A DNA stretch of 64,000 nt from contig OZ242029.1 of assembly GCA_965205015.1 (NCBI GenBank), positions 3,520,001 through 3,584,000 of the forward strand, read 5' to 3'. A program made the position numbers and the translations under genes. Below, one piece after another: positions 14,378 through 56,294 of this stretch; position 1 is the first letter of the stretch; each line of letters opens with the position of its first letter. The DNA is from Candidatus Poribacteria bacterium (GTDB taxonomy: Bacteria; Poribacteria; WGA-4E; WGA-3G). A model generated the notes under the pieces. That model did not search any database and was not told the origin of the DNA. It saw only the letters and a program-made list of their open reading frames with translations.

Positions 14378-14422
14378 TTTTTAAGGTATGGGCCTCCGCA
14401 CAGATTGCCTTAATGGGATTAT

Positions 14423-14508
14423 TGTAGGGGCAGGTCTCGTGCCTGCCCGCGTATTTTGTAATTCTGTTTGAAGAAACGATTGTAGGGGCGGGTCTCGTGC
14501 CTGCCCGT
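14423..14508 (+). repeat. Two GTAG-type REP-like hairpins
   Basis: TGTAGGGGCAGGTCTCGTGCCTGCCCG at 14423 and TGTAGGGGCGGGTCTCGTGCCTGCCCG at 14481; same family as 707-761. Confidence 0.8.
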
Positions 14509-14532
14509 GTGTTAACGATTACAAGTAATGGA

Positions 14533-15612
14533 TTAAAAGGTCCGACCTACACGCGGACCTATTTGCGTTAAGATTTCATAAGGAATGGTTCCAGCGCGCT
14601 GAGCAATCTCATCAACCGTAATTTCGGCGTTTCCCTGTTTCCCGATCAGCACGACTTCATCACCAATGGATACCTTATCTGTCGGTTCCAATTGCACTAC
14701 GCTCACATCCATACAGACCTTGCCGATAATCGGGCGACGCATCCCACCAATCAATACCTCGCCGATACCAGAAAGCGAGCGCGGATAGCCGTCCCCGTAA
14801 CCTATCTGCACCATTGCGACTCGGGTTTGATAAAGTGCTTTGTATGTCAACCCGTAACTTACACCTTCCCCTTCTGAAATAGAACCTGTCCAACCGATAC
14901 GCGCCTTCCATGTAAGTGCCGGTTTTAATGGGATAGGTCTTTCAGTCGCCGGGTAGATACCGTATAGACTCAAACCGGGGCGGACGGCGTTGAAATGGGA
15001 TTCAGGAACCGCCAGCGATGCTGCGCTGTTCGCTACATGCACCATTTTCCCGTTGGTGTCCGAAAGTAGAGATGAAAACCGCTTTAACTGAACAGAAACG
15101 AAACTTTTATCTGCTTCGTCCGCAGTGGCAAGATGTGTAAAAATCCCTTCAACTTCAAGTCCCTGTAGGGTCTGCAATTTACGCAGAAACTGTGGGGCTT
15201 CTGTATAGCACACACCACTCCGATTCATTCCGGTGTTGATATTGACGTGAACTTTTATAGGTGTAGTTTCTGAAGCGACTTCATTCAATACCGTCGCAAA
15301 TTCCCAGTTCCCGAGCGTTGGTGTCAAACTGAATTCAACAATTTGTTCAACCTGCTTAGGGAGGCAACTAAAGAGGATAAGAATCGGTGTGCGAATACCC
15401 GCTTGACGCAGCGCAATACCTTCTTCAACCGTTGCGACTGCAAACATATCGGTGATGGGACGCAGTATTTCTGCTACAGGTGCTGCGCCGTGACCATAAG
15501 CATCTGCTTTCACAACAGCGATCAACTGTTTACCCGTGTGTCTCTTTATCGCTTCAGCATTTTGGCGAATTGCCAGCAGATCGATTTCTGTGTGTGTTCG
15601 GAAATAAGACAT
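14533..15612 (-). CDS. alr: Alanine racemase
   Basis: AVVKADAYGHG PLP lysine motif, TGMNR, GYGDG, CMD. Confidence 0.95.
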   Translation of the reverse strand: MSYFRTHTEIDLLAIRQNAEAIKRHTGKQLIAVVKADAYGHGAAPVAEILRPITDMFAVATVEEGIALRQAGIRTPILILFSCLPKQVEQIVEFSLTPTLGNWEFATVLNEVASETTPIKVHVNINTGMNRSGVCYTEAPQFLRKLQTLQGLEVEGIFTHLATADEADKSFVSVQLKRFSSLLSDTNGKMVHVANSAASLAVPESHFNAVRPGLSLYGIYPATERPIPLKPALTWKARIGWTGSISEGEGVSYGLTYKALYQTRVAMVQIGYGDGYPRSLSGIGEVLIGGMRRPIIGKVCMDVSVVQLEPTDKVSIGDEVVLIGKQGNAEITVDEIAQRAGTIPYEILTQIGPRVGRTF

Positions 15613-15712
15613 CTCGTTTTTTTTACCTTGCTGCGTCAACACGAAAATTATATCACAATTTACACAAATTTACGAATGGTTTCAAATCTTTGCCAGAGAC
15701 ATTCACTGCTCC

Positions 15713-15827
15713 TGTAGGAGGGGAGGAAATCCGCAGAAATCCGCAGAAATACCCTATCAAAAACCCCAAGCAAATACCCCTATCAATACGCAGAAATACC
15801 CAAGCAAAAACACCCCGATTCCCGACT
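15713..15827 (+). repeat. REP-like hairpin whose loop is filled with A/C-rich modular repeats
   Basis: TGTAGGAGGGG...CCCCGATTCCCGACT flanks (compare empty copy at 16731) enclose CCGCAGAAAT x2, ACCCTATCAA, ACCCCAAGCAAAT and related units. Confidence 0.75.
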
Positions 15828-15853
15828 CTTCTGAATCTTTACCAATAACCGTG

Positions 15854-16619
15854 CTATTGTGCCTCTCGTTTTTGGGTAGCGGTAGCATCCCCTTGGAACC
15901 ACAAGAATAACAGGATAAATACGATTGAGTTCGCCAACAGCATCGTTGAGATAGCGTTGATCTTCGGCGTAATCCCGAATTTCAGCAGCGAATAGATGTG
16001 CACAGACAGCGTCGTATAACCCACACCAGCGGTAAAGAATGTGATAACAAAGTCATCAATAGAGAGCGTAAAGGCGAGCAGCGCACCGCCGATAATTCCG
16101 GGAGCAATGAGAGGGAGTGTTATCCGCCAAAAGGTCTGCCATTCGTTCGCGCCGAGGTCGCGGGCGGCTTCTTCTAAGGTGTTATCATAGCCTTGCAGGC
16201 GTGCCCGTACAACGATCGTAACATAGGCGATGTTGAAAACACCATGTGCGATGATTACAGTGATTAATCCCAGGGGGAGGTTGACTTGCACGTAAAAGGT
16301 TAACAAGGCGATCGCCAAGACGATGTCTGGGATAATAATCGGCAGATAGAGCACTCGGACAAGAGCGGTTCGGAAACGGAAGCGGTGTCGTTCTATGGCA
16401 AGTGCCGCTGCTGTCCCGATAACGGTAGCGATAACAGTCGCAATACCTGCTACCATCAAACTATTACGACAGGCGCGCCACAACGCGGCATCCTCAAACA
16501 GTCTCGCATACCAACCAAATGTAAAGCCTTCCCAAACAGAGATTTGCTCTCCCTTGTTGAATGAGAACACCACAACCGCTAAAATTGGCATATATAAGAA
16601 GAGGTAAACCAACCCCATG
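15854..16619 (-). CDS. potC: Polyamine ABC transporter permease (PotC-like); start uncertain because of an insertion
   Basis: LFLYMPI, EAARDLGA, LSIDDF; frame open to 16819 through the inserted element. Confidence 0.8.
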
Positions 16620-16633
16620 TTGGCTTCAAGAAT

Positions 16634-16828
16634 TTTTAATTTTACCTTGCGGGAGAACAACGTGAATTTGGACATTTGACGTGCCTTCCGTAAATCCGCC
16701 TGCGCCGTTGTTGCAGGCTCCGTTTTTGGTTGTAGGAGGGAACTCCGATTCCCGACTTCCATTCGCGCCTTGACCGAAAATCTGTGCGTAATGAAATGGC
16801 GCACAGCCCAAGATCCCATAAATTAAAA
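16634..16828. mobile_element. MITE-like 195-bp element
   Basis: 9-bp terminal inverted repeats TTTTAATTT/AAATTAAAA flanked by AT direct repeats; internal REP and hairpins; related partial copy at 39604. Confidence 0.6.
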
Positions 16829-17677
16829 ATCTTCATTCTGTTGCAAAGCGCGAAAGTATAACACGGTTCCGATCAGGACGATGCCCATCAGCATGAACGA
16901 GAGTGCCGAGCCGAAGGGCCAATCTCGCGCCGTTTTGAATTGCCGCTCGATAACGTTACCGATATAACTCACTTTTCCACCGCCGAGGAGATCCGGCGTT
17001 AGAAACGCACCTACCGTCGGAATAAAGACCAGCATTGATCCAGCAAGGATACCGGGGAGACTGAGTGGGACGGTTACGTGCCAGAATGCGCGCCTCGGCG
17101 ACGCCCCTAAGTCTTGTGCGGCTTCTAACAGTGATACATCTAATTGCTCCAAAGCTGCATAGAGTGGGAGTATCATAAAGGGTAGGTATCCGTAAACGAG
17201 TCCGATCTGCACAGCGAGTGGCGTATTCAGCAGTTCTAATGGACTCCAATTCGGAAGGACTGCCCCCAAGAGACTGTTCAGGAGTCCTTCTGTCCGCAAG
17301 ATCAGTATCCACGCGTAGGTCCGGATAAGGAAGTTCGTCCAAAATGGAACGACCACGAGTAATAACAAAACATTTCTATGTTTCGGTCTGTAGCGTGCCA
17401 GATAATAAGCGAAGGGATAACCGAGCAGTAGACAGATGGCGGTGCAAATCAGCGCTGTCGATACCGAACGCCAGAGGATCCCGAGATAGAGGCCATCGAA
17501 CAGGCGTTGATAGTTTTCCCATGTGAAGTGCCACCGCACCCCGCCGTATGTTCCACGCTCTATGAAACTATAAATGAATACTGATACAAGTGGAAGCAGA
17601 AAAAAGCAGACGAGCCAAAAGACAACGGGAAAAAGGAGGATAAGAAGGTGGTAGTTACGCCGTATATATGTAATCAT
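16823..17677 (-). CDS. potB: Polyamine ABC transporter permease (PotB-like)
   Basis: PFWTNFLIRTYAW, YLPFMILPLY, EAAQDLGA, RDWPFGSA. Confidence 0.88.
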   Translation of the reverse strand: MITYIRRNYHLLILLFPVVFWLVCFFLLPLVSVFIYSFIERGTYGGVRWHFTWENYQRLFDGLYLGILWRSVSTALICTAICLLLGYPFAYYLARYRPKHRNVLLLLVVVPFWTNFLIRTYAWILILRTEGLLNSLLGAVLPNWSPLELLNTPLAVQIGLVYGYLPFMILPLYAALEQLDVSLLEAAQDLGASPRRAFWHVTVPLSLPGILAGSMLVFIPTVGAFLTPDLLGGGKVSYIGNVIERQFKTARDWPFGSALSFMLMGIVLIGTVLYFRALQQNEDF

Positions 17678-17736: not shown

Positions 17737-17823
17737 TGAATCACAGAGTAGCGTGGATTTATAGGGAACCCTCTTAAAATCCGCGTAATCCGTCTCATCG
17801 GCGATAATCCGCGATTCAGACAA
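17737..17823. repeat. Imperfect inverted repeat with iterated AATCCG units
   Basis: GTGAATCAC...GCGTGGATTT ... AAATCCGCGTAATCCG...TAATCCGCGATTCAGACAA. Confidence 0.45.
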
Positions 17824-26925: not shown

Positions 26926-26987
26926 TCCGCAGAAATCGCGCCTCGCCGGCGCGACTGCCAAATTGCGTAGGAGGAGATTTGCTCATT

Positions 26988-27887: not shown

Positions 27888-29450
27888 TTACTCAAGTGAC
27901 CGAAGTGCTTTTTCTACAAGGATTTTAATATCTTTATTGCTTGATTTTTCCGAGAGTGCCAATGCAGTCCGAAAATCTTGTTTTGCCTTGCGCGTGCGAT
28001 CTAGCAAAGCGTTCACACTTCCGCGATTATAGTATGCCAAAGCAAAATCAGGTTTTAATCGGATCGCAATATCATAGTCAGCGATAGCAGCATTAGGTTG
28101 CCCGAGTTTTTCTTTCACAAATCCGCGCCTGATGTATGCATGGGTAAAATCAGGTTTTAATCGGATCGCCGTATCATGATCCGTTATGGCATCAGAATAT
28201 CGTCCGAGTTTGTATTTTGCTCTTCCGCGATTGTTGTATGCGTCAGCATAATCAGGGTTTAGCAGTAGAACTATGTTGTAATCGGCAATAGCAGCATTAT
28301 ATTGTCCAAGTTTATACTTCGCATTTCCGCGATTGTTGTATGCGTCAGCATAATCAGAGTTTAGCAGTATGGCTATGTTGTAATTGGCAATAGCGGCATC
28401 ATATTGTCCAAGGTTGTGCTTCGCTTTTCCACGGTTGTTGTATGTATCGACATGATCAGGATTTAGGTATATAGCCGTATCATAATCGGCAATAGCGGCA
28501 TCATATTGTCCAAGTTTATACTTCACATTTCCACGGTTGTTGTATGCATCGACATGATCAGATTTTAGTTTTATCGTCATATCATAATCGGCAATAGCGG
28601 CATCATATTGTCCAAGTTTATACTTCACATTTCCACGGTTGTTGTATGCATTGGCATGATAAGGATTTAGTTGTATAGCCATATCATAATCGGCAATAGC
28701 ATTTTCGTAGTCCCTTGATTCGTATTTTTCTTGCCCCCATCTGTAGTAAACCTCGGAAAACCTGACGGGGTCTACATGTGTGAACGGTATCACTGTACCT
28801 GATCGATCAAGCAAGTCCTTGAGGATATTTATAGGAATCGCGAAATTGAGATTCTGACCATCTACAAGGGTCATAAAAGAAACGCCAATAATCTCACCTT
28901 TGCTATTTAGTACAGGACCGCCACTGCTTCCCGGAGAAATCGGTGCTGTCATTAGAAGACGTTCCTTCATAGATTTTTCGCGCCGACTACTAATAATACC
29001 ATCTGAGAACGTTCCTCCCAGTCCCTTCGAATTGCCCACGACATACACATTCTCGCCAATACGAACGACATCACTGTCACCAAGCGGAAGGGGTTTAACC
29101 CCAGATCCCATGACTTTTAGAATGGCCAGATTGTTTATTTGATCAACTGCTGTAACGCCTTCAAGGATGTATGTTGTGAACTCGCCAACTAACTTCGCTG
29201 TACCACGCATTGCGCCATTTATAACGTGGTAATTGGTAGCGATCAGGTTTTCGCGCACGAAGAACCCGCTGCCAAAGCCGAGAGTTTTGCCGTTGCTATC
29301 CTGCATCTCTAAATAGACGGTGGCAGCTAATGCCTTTTCAGCGATCTCTGGCACAGTCTGAGCAGGTGTAGTGCTTATCATGCAGAATATCAGTAGAATC
29401 ACAAGTATCATTAGCGGTTGTGCCCACATTAATTCGTTTTTATGTTTCAT
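27888..29450 (-). CDS. Trypsin-like serine protease domain + TPR repeat protein
   Basis: GSGFF, TNYH, ISPGSSGGP; about eight 34-aa TPRs (AYNNRG...AIADYD). Confidence 0.88.
   Translation of the reverse strand: MKHKNELMWAQPLMILVILLIFCMISTTPAQTVPEIAEKALAATVYLEMQDSNGKTLGFGSGFFVRENLIATNYHVINGAMRGTAKLVGEFTTYILEGVTAVDQINNLAILKVMGSGVKPLPLGDSDVVRIGENVYVVGNSKGLGGTFSDGIISSRREKSMKERLLMTAPISPGSSGGPVLNSKGEIIGVSFMTLVDGQNLNFAIPINILKDLLDRSGTVIPFTHVDPVRFSEVYYRWGQEKYESRDYENAIADYDMAIQLNPYHANAYNNRGNVKYKLGQYDAAIADYDMTIKLKSDHVDAYNNRGNVKYKLGQYDAAIADYDTAIYLNPDHVDTYNNRGKAKHNLGQYDAAIANYNIAILLNSDYADAYNNRGNAKYKLGQYNAAIADYNIVLLLNPDYADAYNNRGRAKYKLGRYSDAITDHDTAIRLKPDFTHAYIRRGFVKEKLGQPNAAIADYDIAIRLKPDFALAYYNRGSVNALLDRTRKAKQDFRTALALSEKSSNKDIKILVEKALRSLE
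28200..28700. repeat. 102-bp tandem coding repeats (TPR units)
   Basis: TTGTTGTATG recurs at about 28232, 28334, 28436, 28538 and 28640. Confidence 0.85.
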
Positions 29451-39603: not shown

Positions 39604-39660
39604 TTTTTAATTTACCTTGCGGGAGAACAACGTGGTTTTAGACTTTGACGCGTATTTCTT
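39604..39660. repeat. Partial copy of the MITE-like element end
   Basis: TTTTTAATTTACCTTGCGGGAGAACAACGTG nearly identical to 16633-16664; abuts the amidohydrolase start codon. Confidence 0.7.
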
Positions 39661-42317: not shown

Positions 42318-42365
42318 ATCGCGAGCACGCGGAAACACCCTATCAAAAACACTCGCTCCTACAAG
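42318..42365 (-). repeat. REP-like hairpin with A/C-rich loop insert
   Basis: ATCGCGAGC[ACGCGGAAACACCCTATCAAAAAC]ACTCGCTCCTACAAG. Confidence 0.75.
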
Positions 42366-52484: not shown

Positions 52485-54785
52485 TTAACTCGGACGATTG
52501 ACGAGATCAGCGAGATATTCAGCAATTTTGTCTGTAATCTGTTGCGCGTCTACATCCGCAAAGTTAAACAGTTCCTTAAGCATAGGGGAGATAGCACCTG
52601 TATCAAGCAAGGCATTTGCGAGCCTACCCATATTACTTCGGTTGAGGCCGCCTTGTCCATCATTGCTCCCCATATCGAGAATTTTGATGCTGTCGATTTT
52701 TTCAACAGGTTTCATGAGTTCTTCAACAATATCAGACGCCTCGTCAATGAGTTCCATAATTGCCTCTTGAACGAGGACGCGTTGTTCAGCGACATTTCGG
52801 GCTTCATATTCTGCCATCTCGCCTTGTGCTTTCGCACGCGCCTCGGCAAGTACAGCATCGGCAAGCCGTTCGATGGGTTGTGCCTGCGCTTCGGCACCAA
52901 TGATTGCCACCTCACGCTGCCATTCGGCTTCTTTCACCTGTTCTGTTGCCGTCACAGTCACTTCTGCACCCATACGTTCAGCTTCCGCGACTAACTGCTC
53001 TTTCTCTGCGAGTGCCGTTACCTGCTGTTTATTCGCAACCTCGATCTTCCGATCCTCGTCGGTTAAAGCGACCTGTAATTCCTGGTTAATGCGAGTCTGC
53101 TCTACTGTCAAGGTTTTCGCAATCTCGGCGAGTGAAACCTGTCGCATCTGATCGATTTGTGCGGTTTCTACAACGAGATTCTTCTCGATTTCCCGCTGTT
53201 GAACCTGTTGTTCCTGACTGAAGCGTGTCGTCTGGACGGTTAAGTCGCGCGTAATATCCCGCAAGGATACGCCCTCTTCTTGGGCAATGCGAGCTTTCTC
53301 GACCATAAGCTCCTTCTCAATATCGCGGGTTTCAACCTGTTGTTCCTGTGCGATGCGTGCTATTTCTACTGTCAAGGTCTTGGCAACTTCGGCGAGTTCG
53401 ACTTGACGCATCTGATCGATTTGTGCGGTTTCAACGACGAGGTTTTTCTCAATTTCCCGCTGTTGGACCTGCTGCTCTTGACTGAAACGTGCGGTTTGCA
53501 CTGCCAATTCACGCTGAATATCGCGTAGCATAACCCCTTCTTCTTGGGCAATACGGGCTTTCTCTACAGTCAATTCTTTCTCTATTTCACGAACGGCAAT
53601 CGTCTGTTCTTGCGCGATTCTCTGCATTTGAACGACGAGATGTTGCTCAATTTCGGCGAGTTGCACAACTTTGGATTGCTCAATTTGTTGTGTTTCGACG
53701 ATGAGGTTTTTCTCAATTTCACGTTCCGCGACGATCTGTTCCTGTTGGACGCGAGCGACTTCGATGTCGCGGTTCATCTCGATTTCACGTTCTTGGATGA
53801 CCTGTTCTTGTCTAATACGTGCGCGCTCAACCTCCTGCTTCATCTCGTATTCACGTTCTTGCACACCCTGTTCCATCTCAAATTGGAATTTGAGCGTCTC
53901 GGCTTCCCGTTCCGCGGCATAGATGGCAATATTTTTCTGCTGGTCGGATTCTGCCCATGCTTGTTGTTGTTCGGCTTCGAGTTTCTGTATGCGGGCATCG
54001 ACCTCGATCTGAACAATGGCGACCTCTTTTTCTTGTACAATCCGTTCTTTTTCTCGTTCCTGCTCGGCTGTGATTTCGGTGATTTCTCGGATACCGACGG
54101 CGTCAAATCGGTTTTCGGCATCAAGCGTTTCAACGGGGGTCTGATCTACCCGAATAATAGATACAGTTTCAAGCGTTAAACCGTTCTGGGTTTCCAGATC
54201 CTCACCACACGCCGATTGCACCTTGTCAGCAAACTCTTGGCGTTTCTGGAGGAGATCTTGAATATCACTTTCGGCTGCAACACTTCGCAATGCGCCCTCG
54301 AGTTTCGGTTCAATTAATTCGCGCACCGTCTCTGGCGTCATAGATTTATCGCCGAGCGCTTGTGCAGCGCGTAAAATATCGGTTTCTTCGGGTTCAACTT
54401 TAAGGTAGAAAACAACTTCGACATCACCGCGGTTAAAGTCGTAGGTAATCAAAGCCTCCGGACCTTCTCGTATCACTTCAATACGCATGGTATTCAGAGA
54501 GATCTCTTTGATTTCATGGATAATAGTATTAACCCAGAGACCCCCAGTGATACGAATTTTTTCTTTTGCACCACCCGTTCGCACAAGGGCGACATCGGCT
54601 TTGGGGATACGGTAGCGAATAACTGTCGCCGCAAAGGTCGCCAGACTCGCGAATAATACGAAGAGAATGACTGTCAACCACCGTATGACCTCGTTTTGTC
54701 CAAAGCGGTCGAGGTTTTGATATGCAAACCAGCCAACAGCGACTGCAACGGCTATTAAGAAAACGATAGCGGCAATGAAACGCAT
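52485..54785 (-). CDS. Flotillin/SPFH-domain protein with expanded coiled coil
   Basis: Two TM helices, ALVRTG, ISLNTMRIEV, GLTLETVSI, NRFDAVG, KPVEKIDSIKI. Confidence 0.9.
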   Translation of the reverse strand: MRFIAAIVFLIAVAVAVGWFAYQNLDRFGQNEVIRWLTVILFVLFASLATFAATVIRYRIPKADVALVRTGGAKEKIRITGGLWVNTIIHEIKEISLNTMRIEVIREGPEALITYDFNRGDVEVVFYLKVEPEETDILRAAQALGDKSMTPETVRELIEPKLEGALRSVAAESDIQDLLQKRQEFADKVQSACGEDLETQNGLTLETVSIIRVDQTPVETLDAENRFDAVGIREITEITAEQEREKERIVQEKEVAIVQIEVDARIQKLEAEQQQAWAESDQQKNIAIYAAEREAETLKFQFEMEQGVQEREYEMKQEVERARIRQEQVIQEREIEMNRDIEVARVQQEQIVAEREIEKNLIVETQQIEQSKVVQLAEIEQHLVVQMQRIAQEQTIAVREIEKELTVEKARIAQEEGVMLRDIQRELAVQTARFSQEQQVQQREIEKNLVVETAQIDQMRQVELAEVAKTLTVEIARIAQEQQVETRDIEKELMVEKARIAQEEGVSLRDITRDLTVQTTRFSQEQQVQQREIEKNLVVETAQIDQMRQVSLAEIAKTLTVEQTRINQELQVALTDEDRKIEVANKQQVTALAEKEQLVAEAERMGAEVTVTATEQVKEAEWQREVAIIGAEAQAQPIERLADAVLAEARAKAQGEMAEYEARNVAEQRVLVQEAIMELIDEASDIVEELMKPVEKIDSIKILDMGSNDGQGGLNRSNMGRLANALLDTGAISPMLKELFNFADVDAQQITDKIAEYLADLVNRPS

Positions 54786-56252: not shown

Positions 56253-56294
56253 CGGGTTGGAAACCCCCGCATTGATGCCAGGGTTTCCAACCCG
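56253..56294. promoter_or_regulatory. Perfect 14-bp hairpin between an SD-like sequence and the crystallin gene start
   Basis: Minus strand AAGGAG-CGGGTTGGAAACCC-14 nt-GGGTTTCCAACCCG-AAGAAC-TTG-ATG. Confidence 0.55.

Follow-up and report, generated by a model that had tools for sequence, protein, structure and literature searches.

The filled element examined here lies in a 64-kb window of a Candidatus Poribacteria MAG, between the start of an alanine racemase gene (14533-15642, minus strand) and the 3′ end of an ABC permease gene (15854-16819, minus strand). Its two arms, TGTAGGAGG and CCGATTCCCGACT, occur twice each in the window, at 15713 and 16731 and at 15815 and 16745, respectively. In the first occurrence the arms are separated by 90 nt of composition A41 C29 G10 T10; in the second the spacing is merely 4–5 nt. 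An earlier note on this DNA had described the filler as about 90 nt of repeated units between arms that match an empty copy nearby, and the sequences are as described. The empty copy had been called a 27-bp hairpin; its arms do match, but its fold is weak (−4.1 kcal/mol with DNA parameters). Tandem Repeats Finder assigns periods of 10 and 13 to the array, and a repeat search placed 15738, 15785 and 42324 in a single 30-nt family. Units of the same kind had also been reported within an unrelated hairpin family at 42318, and they are indeed found there, between different arms. Rfam gave no match in 15400-17000 at a permissive threshold.

The surroundings of the element differ among relatives. 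A search with the alanine racemase returned 55 loci, 51 of them in Poribacteria MAGs, the closest being L011 (87% identical). The direct repeat that borders the whole element is present as a single copy in L011, which lacks the element, and stands on both sides of an empty element in L024. Tails resembling the extension of the long-form host occur at L061 and L065 and at 65210 and 320173 of genome G001. In one X18 contig, about 95% identical to the window, 15694-15814 is represented by 17 nt, a stretch that agrees in length, its letters being unseen, with the short empty form of L024; a locus-specific 25-mer had no matches in metagenome contigs. The second permease probably starts at Met49, and the empty copy of the host is thus intergenic. 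Directly upstream of the second permease gene, 16634-16722 resembles an empty long element of the F5/F6 type (GCCTGCAACAACGGCGCAGG-CGGATTTACGG... on the minus strand), a 43-nt end of which recurs at 39604-39646, upstream of an M20 peptidase gene; the first 48 codons of the ORF at 15854-16819 are therefore probably non-coding.

Several other repeats are present in the window. Two pairs of a classic GTAG-tagged REP (TGTAGGGGCAGGTCTCGTGCCTGCCC, 7-bp stem) lie at 705-768 and 14421-14513, and all four copies are empty; in an X1 contig 14433-14490 is skipped, suggestive of an allele with one copy. High unitig depth and "goes back 45/46" joints, seen in three runs, mark the period-9 repeat at 17776-17823 (AATCCGCGT, 3.9 copies) as a further small repeat that is multi-copy or variable in length. 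In-frame coding tandem repeats are found in a trypsin-like/TPR protein gene (28012-28725; 102-nt unit, 34 aa, TPR repeats) and in a flotillin/Band-7 gene (53071-53823; units of 66, 132 and 264 nt). A near-perfect inverted repeat at 56253-56294 (20-nt arms, 90% complementary, 2-nt gap) is situated between a beta/gamma-crystallin-domain gene and the next gene, and looks like a terminator or a REP. Counted in the window only, CGCAGAAAT (4 matches, 0.81 expected) and ACCCNNNCAAA (5 matches, 2.2 expected) are weakly above chance. The occurrence of CGCAGAAAT at 26928 was considered as a relic or insertion and rejected: five orthologues show diverged sequence at that position and no insertion.

Table. 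Features of the window, host repeat families and orthologous sites. G001 to G005 are the genomes behind L011, L012, L013, L003 and L002, respectively; F1 to F8 are host families, with arrays counted in 1.2 Mb of G001.
Feature	Position	Strand	Sequence	Remark
Cassette array, 90 nt	15725-15814	minus	minus (G/T) strand: GGTG-TTTTTGCTTGGG-TATTTCTGCG-TATTGATAGGG-GTATTTGCTTGGG-GTTTTTGATAGGG-TATTTCTGCG-GATTTCTGCG-GATTTCC	unit grammar common to 57 arrays of G001
GTAG-tagged arm of host F3	15713-15724	plus	TGTAGGAGGGGA	recurs at 16731
Second arm of host F3	15815-15827	plus	CCGATTCCCGACT	recurs at 16745
Extension in long-form F3 host	15694-15712	plus	CAGAGACATTCACTGCTCC	missing from short empty form of L024
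Direct repeat flanking whole element	15685-15693	plus	AATCTTTGC	partner at 15834-15842
Direct repeat	15834-15842	plus	AATCTTTAC	partner of 15685-15693
Empty copy of host F3	16731-16757	plus	TGTAGGAGGGAACTCCGATTCCCGACT	between two ABC permease genes
Filled copy of host F2	42318-42363	minus	minus strand: TGTAGGAGCGAG-[TGTTTTTGATAGGGTGTTTCCGCGTG]-CTCGCGAT	
Host F1			GGCGAGGT..ACCTCGCC	10 arrays
Host F2			GTAGGAGCGAG..CTCGCGA	1 array
Host F3			GGGAATCGGAGT..TCCCTCCTAC	2 arrays; host of 15713-15827
Host F4			CCCCAGCGGGG..	5 arrays
Host F5			..GAAACGAAGTGGAGGG..	8 arrays
Host F6			CTGCAACAACGGCGCAGG..	2 arrays
Host F7			GTAGGT..GTTGAGC	4 arrays
Host F8			GTGGGAGGGGT..CCCC	2 arrays
Other hosts				several recurring contexts; 23 of 57 arrays
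Orthologous site, F3	window			filled long form; L024 empty short form with same bordering direct repeat; L011 no element
Orthologous site	L013			filled; L012, L001 and L027 empty
Orthologous site, F1	G001 457564		GGT-TAG-AAACC to GGT-GTTTTTGCTTGGGTGTTTCCCTTAAG-AAACC	filled; G003, G004 and G005 empty
Orthologous site, F8	G001 203662			filled; G003, G004 and G002 empty
Orthologous site, F7	G001 204538			filled; G002 empty, G005 filled too
Orthologous site, F4	G001 210778			filled, 80-nt array; G003 empty
Orthologous site, F5	G001 428948			filled; G003 empty
Orthologous site	G001 449573			~130-nt segment in tandem, one copy empty and one filled; G003 single empty copy

Structure and distribution of the cassette

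The 90-nt filler is one copy of a short, non-coding cassette of variable length. In Poribacteria that live as sponge symbionts, this cassette is lodged within numerous small intergenic repeats that are unrelated to one another. On the G/T-rich strand it has the form GGGT-[GTTTTTG(CTT/ATA)GGG]n-[TRTTTC(T/CCC)TGCG]n-...TTTC, in which units of 10–14 nt are chained. B units are (G)(T)GTTTTTG(CTT/ATA)GGG and A units are T(A/G)TTTC(T/CCC)TGCG or GATTTCTGCG; short B units, TATTG(CTT/ATA)GGG, come after A units, and the array closes with TTTC followed by CCC or TTC. Judged by their sequences, all of these units look like variants of a single motif, GGGTRTTTYTGC.

A clustering rule applied to the first 1.2 Mb of G001 gave 57 arrays; three of these (168171, 920675, 961633) are probably chance matches inside ORFs, and one array was counted twice. 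The order of units had been thought to be shuffled. It is instead polar: 56 of the 57 arrays begin with a B unit, TTTTTG(CTT/ATA)GGG, and TTTCTGCG units come after it. Arrays contain from 1 to about 16 units and span 20 to about 230 nt, the longest being L292; in the 1.2 Mb, 34 of the 57 consist of a single B unit, and the unit strings of the 22 long arrays all differ. The 5′ boundary is sharp, with the consensus RGG(T/G)GTTTTTGCTTGGG and no conservation upstream of −7 in a logo of 48 first units. The cassette contains no ORF and no hairpin of its own, and it lacks the terminal inverted repeats of a MITE, since its ends, GGGTGTTTTTGC... and ...TTTC(CCC/TTC), are not mutually complementary. It does share with BOX elements an internal tandem module, present in variable number, between end modules. 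At G001 353623 and at L301 (G001:C1:2815080-2815400) two arrays stand head to head, inverted, with GTTTTTGCTT and AAGCAAAAAC meeting at a palindromic centre, an arrangement that looks like a strand switch within a B unit.

The cassette is dispersed and strand-asymmetric, as the earlier note had supposed. Of 120 sampled genomes of the phylum, 47 contain the 17-mer of the B-unit core, TTTTGCTTGGGTRTTTC, and 39 of the 47 hold 8 to 138 copies, with 138 in G001; its reversed control had no match in any of the 120. A longer probe, GGGTRTTTCYGCG, had 85 matches in G001 and 75 in G002 (reversed control, 1 and 2), and 5, 7 and 6 in G003, G004 and G005. Because these last three genomes carry 59–92 copies of the 17-mer, their arrays must be mostly short forms. 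Outside the sampled genomes, a 21-mer search found 23 loci in a few metagenome records. Viral contigs gave 19 matches to the 17-mer, mostly in unrelated sequence, and only L269 and L279 are cassette-like; by our own rough estimate, 19 is close to the chance expectation.

One might ask whether such irregular arrays are products of assembly or of adapter sequence. Logan unitigs of runs X15 and X16 end at 15754 and resume at 15787, and thus break within the array. The cassette nevertheless recurs, in consistent contexts, in dozens of independent MAGs, chromosome-level assemblies among them, and in other metagenomes, and this recurrence rules out an artefact.

Host repeats and orthologous sites

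The cassette was never found alone. Each copy is embedded in another repeat, and within a host family the insertion point and the orientation are both fixed; the 3′ junction, too, is specific to the family. At least eight families carry it, including GTAG-tagged REP-like hairpins, a TA-duplicating MITE and elements of about 110 nt. The units are not a fixed part of one MITE, in keeping with the earlier note. Of the 57 arrays, 30 have one or both flanks repeated elsewhere, compared with 6 of 57 control positions. One F1 host lies within a MITE that has the ends TATAGTAAAG.. and ..CTTTACTATA and a TA duplication.

The hosts vary in the extent to which they resemble REPs. F1 and F2 (16 matches for F2) are short imperfect palindromes in many extragenic copies, and folding of empty copies with DNA parameters gives real hairpins for F1 (−10.5 kcal/mol), F2 (−6.8) and F8 (−7.0). 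F3, with its weak fold, is also rare (the 1.2 Mb of G001 contains 5 copies), and the empty copy of F7 gives no fold. In F4 and F5 the insertion point is directly 3′ of a small hairpin, outside the loop. A GTAG tag stands at the foot of the hairpin in F3 (TGTAGGAGGG), F2 (TGTAGGAGCGAG), F7 (GTAGGT) and the REPs at 705 and 14421 of the window (TGTAGGGGCAGG); no GTAG adjoins the cassette in F1, F4 and F8. Regular-expression searches of the 1.2 Mb gave 78 matches for F1, with about 47 short-loop (3–10 nt) empties versus 9 filled copies, and empty/filled counts of 14/2 for F2, 2/3 for F3, 2/4 for F4, 27/8 for F5 and 4/2 for F6; empties are thus commoner than filled copies in F1, F2 and F5.

The cassette had been placed in hairpin loops. 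This holds for about a third of the copies; the rest lie directly 3′ of a G-run in other repeats. Exact flanking stems of at least 7 bp accompany 10 of the 57 arrays, against 8% in a permuted control, and a rule by which the cassette is always in a hairpin loop is therefore rejected. The common denominator of the insertion points is the preceding G-run.

Hosts and cassette are also nested and multiplied in other ways. At L067, L082 and L085 of G002 a different REP hairpin (CGCTGAATGC..GCATTCAGCG) lies inside a cassette B unit, so that nesting occurs in both directions, and L085 has a further nested insert. At the orthologue of G001 203662 the empty F8 hairpin unit (AATGTGGGAGGGGTTTGTAACCCC) is present in five tandem copies in G002 (L200), two in G004 and one in G003.

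The strongest evidence for movement comes from orthologous loci, for which the earlier note had proposed a comparison of empty and filled alleles. Such alleles were found at eight sites with the same host and the same flanks, spanning six host families (table). The flanks are about 90–95% identical between species. In all eight pairs the cassette directly follows GG(T) or AG(T), and 0–6 nt are replaced with none duplicated, so that the fixed-length target duplication of a MITE is absent; replacement of a few nucleotides without duplication resembles a conversion patch. Where several outgroups are readable the empty state is common to them, which makes the filled state derived.

Whole filled elements have been gained or lost at five further sites: G001 431462, 495732 and 735063 (the last with inverted ends and a TA duplication), G003 1719637, and window 42318, where the entire element is specific to the lineage of the window, the orthologous spacer lacking it in five of five relatives. 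Empty copies of this host, F2, are known from L062, L008 and G001. Length also changes in place: an array of about 95 nt (about 8 units) at G001 602770 corresponds to a single unit at G003 1653798, with the same F2 host and the same flanks. Only 3 of about 16 sites examined are shared in the filled state, among them the minimal copy at G003 1712641. For the G001 arrays at 455095, 408744, 573758, 751250, 763387, 774872 and 789138 no orthologous flanks were found, and 386264 is ambiguous. Taken over these comparisons, the cassette is gained and lost fast between species.

A search of the complete G001 chromosome for donors of two long G001-specific arrays found no identical copy elsewhere. Their best other matches in G001 are 93% identical over 81 of 97 nt and 96% identical over 84 of 116 nt, and such similar stretches sit in other host families. 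With so few unit types, these similarities do not prove transfer between families.

Proposed mechanisms of gain, filling and resizing

The changes at orthologous loci might be explained by a composite repeat that works in the manner of BOX elements, in which a minisatellite core is carried along by mobile hosts, spreads by copying from one paralogue to another and varies in length by slippage. We favour this explanation, at a confidence that stands midway between belief and doubt. On this reading the filler would be one copy of a clade-wide core, a hypervariable minisatellite of 10–14-nt variant units. Filled host elements insert whole at new intergenic sites, as the five gained or lost elements illustrate. 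Resident empty copies become filled, with replacement of 2–6 loop nucleotides; presumably a filled paralogue of that family acts as donor in copy-choice or gene conversion, which would be primed within the arms that both have in common, probably after the hairpin has stalled replication or has been cut and repaired. The number of units changes in place, perhaps because strands slip and mispair, or because exchange is unequal between units with GGGT...TTT in common. The cassette may also pass on rare occasions from one host family to another via the microhomologies GG(G)T and TTTC(C). A dedicated polymerase would be unnecessary. The fact that the 22 long arrays are all different, with 34 of 57 arrays reduced to one unit, fits a slipping minisatellite, and a combination of mobile host with cargo, conversion of empties and in-place length change is the most economical account of the outcomes seen.

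Several observations weigh against the composite repeat. The arms of REP-type hosts (8–14 bp) are short for conversion of the RecA type, and the two long G001-specific arrays lack an identical donor. At least eight host families, together with the 23 of 57 arrays in other contexts, would call for many cross-family transfers. The constant GG(T) at the 5′ junction would fit equally well a primer or target requirement of an enzyme. Moreover, an exact core across species in which filled sites are seldom shared points to a continuing process that specifies the sequence, or else to selection; passive conversion does not account for it.

It is possible, though we consider it distinctly less probable than the composite repeat, that the cassette is an autonomous micro-insertion, which a putative activity other than RVT_1 or Prim-Pol writes or pastes directly 3′ of a GG(T) that hairpins or other repeats expose. 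The template of such a loop-filling activity, an equally tentative proposal, would be a conserved sequence bounded on either side by C-runs, and realignment on it would give the variable number of units and length of G-runs. Such an activity would account for a core that is conserved despite fast turnover of sites, for the invariant 5′ junction, for loop nucleotides replaced in six host families, for the short arms and multiplicity of the hosts, and for the distinctness of each long array, including the two new ones that have no identical donor. The tandem duplicate of G001, with one empty and one filled copy, also speaks for it. On the other hand, family-specific junctions and fixed orientation are also explained by a single founder in each family, and most arrays are placed in a repeated host, with none shown in unique DNA.

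Nor was a candidate enzyme or template locus found. A Pfam scan of 44 ORFs in the window revealed housekeeping genes or no match, and no transposase (no Y1_Tnp), reverse transcriptase or primase; the earlier note, too, had seen no responsible enzyme in the window. The master template locus that it envisaged was not seen. The note had also suggested a RAYT-linked repair route. Among the 120 genomes Y1_Tnp is nearly universal (106 genomes; 38 of the 39 that are cassette-rich and 68 of the 81 others), and it does not discriminate between the two groups. The one G001 copy of Y1_Tnp that was inspected has no flanking REPs; the sequence beside it looks coding, possibly a second IS gene.

The enzyme originally proposed to add the units was of the RT type, such as a telomerase or a retron, or else a primase-polymerase, and the G/T-rich units, variable G-runs and irregular look of the arrays are of the kind that such an enzyme might leave. 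The distribution of these enzymes makes either of them extremely improbable. RVT_1 (PF00078) has no match in G001, a complete chromosome with 138 cassette copies, and it is missing from 16 of the 39 cassette-rich genomes, including the complete chromosomes of G001 and G005; its presence in 23 of 39 cassette-rich genomes and 38 of 81 others shows no association. Prim-Pol (PF09250) is found in 2 of 120 genomes, both cassette-free, and in none of the 39. The failure of RT and Prim-Pol to track the cassette also counts against a dedicated activity of another kind. Furthermore, no repeats occur at DNA ends: the arrays are polar and all internal, with host sequence on both sides.

Selection on the host could keep the sequence instead, if the cassette were a DNA site such as an array bound by a nucleoid or recombination protein, or a G-tract that forms a structure. 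Conservation of the exact 17-mer in 39 genomes is consistent with this idea, as is the intergenic location of 47 of the 57 G001 arrays, though a crude ORF call makes 86% of the 1.2 Mb coding. The earlier note had proposed to test whether copies follow the replichore strand. If dnaA marks the origin, 48 of the 70 arrays of G002 have their G/T strand on the presumed leading strand, but a runs test is not significant (p=0.33); the 1.2 Mb of G001 shows no bias, plus-strand arrays numbering 24 and minus-strand arrays 20 to the left of dnaA, where GC skew is noisy. The strand rule is thus weak. Nor do arrays in the 1.2 Mb favour one orientation towards genes or one distance from them; of the arrays flanked by co-directional genes, 22 have the G/T strand in sense and 19 in antisense. 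Since, in addition, sites are not conserved between species and copy number runs from 8 to 138, a host-selected site seems improbable, less so than an RT or primase and more so than a dedicated writer.

Parallels with known small repeats

A search of the literature available here found nothing that links Poribacteria with repeats of this kind. The closest parallel is perhaps the small dispersed repeats of Nostoc, which Elhai et al. in 2008 reportedly described as about 21–27 nt long and nested in MITE hairpins and other repeats, and which are said to have been judged mobile from orthologous comparisons, their mechanism being unknown. The Nostoc repeats differ in phylum and in sequence, and the cassette is a variable-length tandem array of variant units.

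Insertion sequences can also target REPs, IS1397 among them. REPs are known targets of full-size insertion sequences such as ISPa11 and ISPpu9/10, which resemble the cassette as foreign DNA landing specifically in REP elements of different genomes (PMC1525189). These insertion sequences encode a transposase (PMC1525189), whereas the cassette is geneless, 20–230 nt long, and without inverted ends or target duplication.

BIMEs, REPs and the REPIN-RAYT system share with the poribacterial hosts GTAG-tagged short palindromes, many intergenic copies, other conserved motifs and Y1 transposase genes (PMC3116915, PMC3733652). The extra motifs of BIMEs lie between two REPs, in contrast to the cassette, which lies inside the loop of one REP (PMC3116915, PMC3733652); nor is a cognate RAYT linked to the cassette so far. 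Loops of GTAG-tagged REPs are given in a published survey as mostly 2–5 nt, with 9–15 or up to 27 nt in some families, and that survey discarded unusual loops (PMC3733652).

The working of the cassette is most readily likened to that of the BOX elements of streptococci, without implying membership of a family from another phylum. These have the structure boxA-(boxB)n-boxC with boxB in variable number, boxB modules in S. suis are also flanked by a second kind of ends, boxE and boxF, and slippage or unequal exchange is held responsible for differences in length from strain to strain (PMC3049150). Like the cassette, they are intergenic non-coding composites with a variable-number tandem module, one module being held between different ends. 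The cassette differs in its units of 10–14 nt in several interleaved variants (about 45 nt in BOX), in at least eight host contexts rather than two, and in the filling of resident empty hosts in place (PMC3049150).

The origin and spread of bacterial small intergenic repeats are largely unsolved. In the Poribacteria, an uncultivated phylum of sponge symbionts, the presence of one cassette in at least eight hosts, with clean empty/filled pairs and many chromosome-level genomes, makes the movement of a 20-nt sequence directly testable through genome comparison and population data at the level of reads. If conversion and slippage are responsible, the cassette would be a good natural model of repeat mosaicism as it occurs in BOX elements and BIMEs. 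There is also a lesser but appreciable chance that an undescribed poribacterial activity writes or pastes a conserved cassette of 20 to more than 200 nt, composed of stuttered 10–14-nt units, 3′ of GG(T) in loops and at feet of diverse unrelated hairpin repeats, with no RT, Prim-Pol, inverted ends or target duplication; were this so, it would represent a new class of bacterial micro-mobile element and a possible tool.
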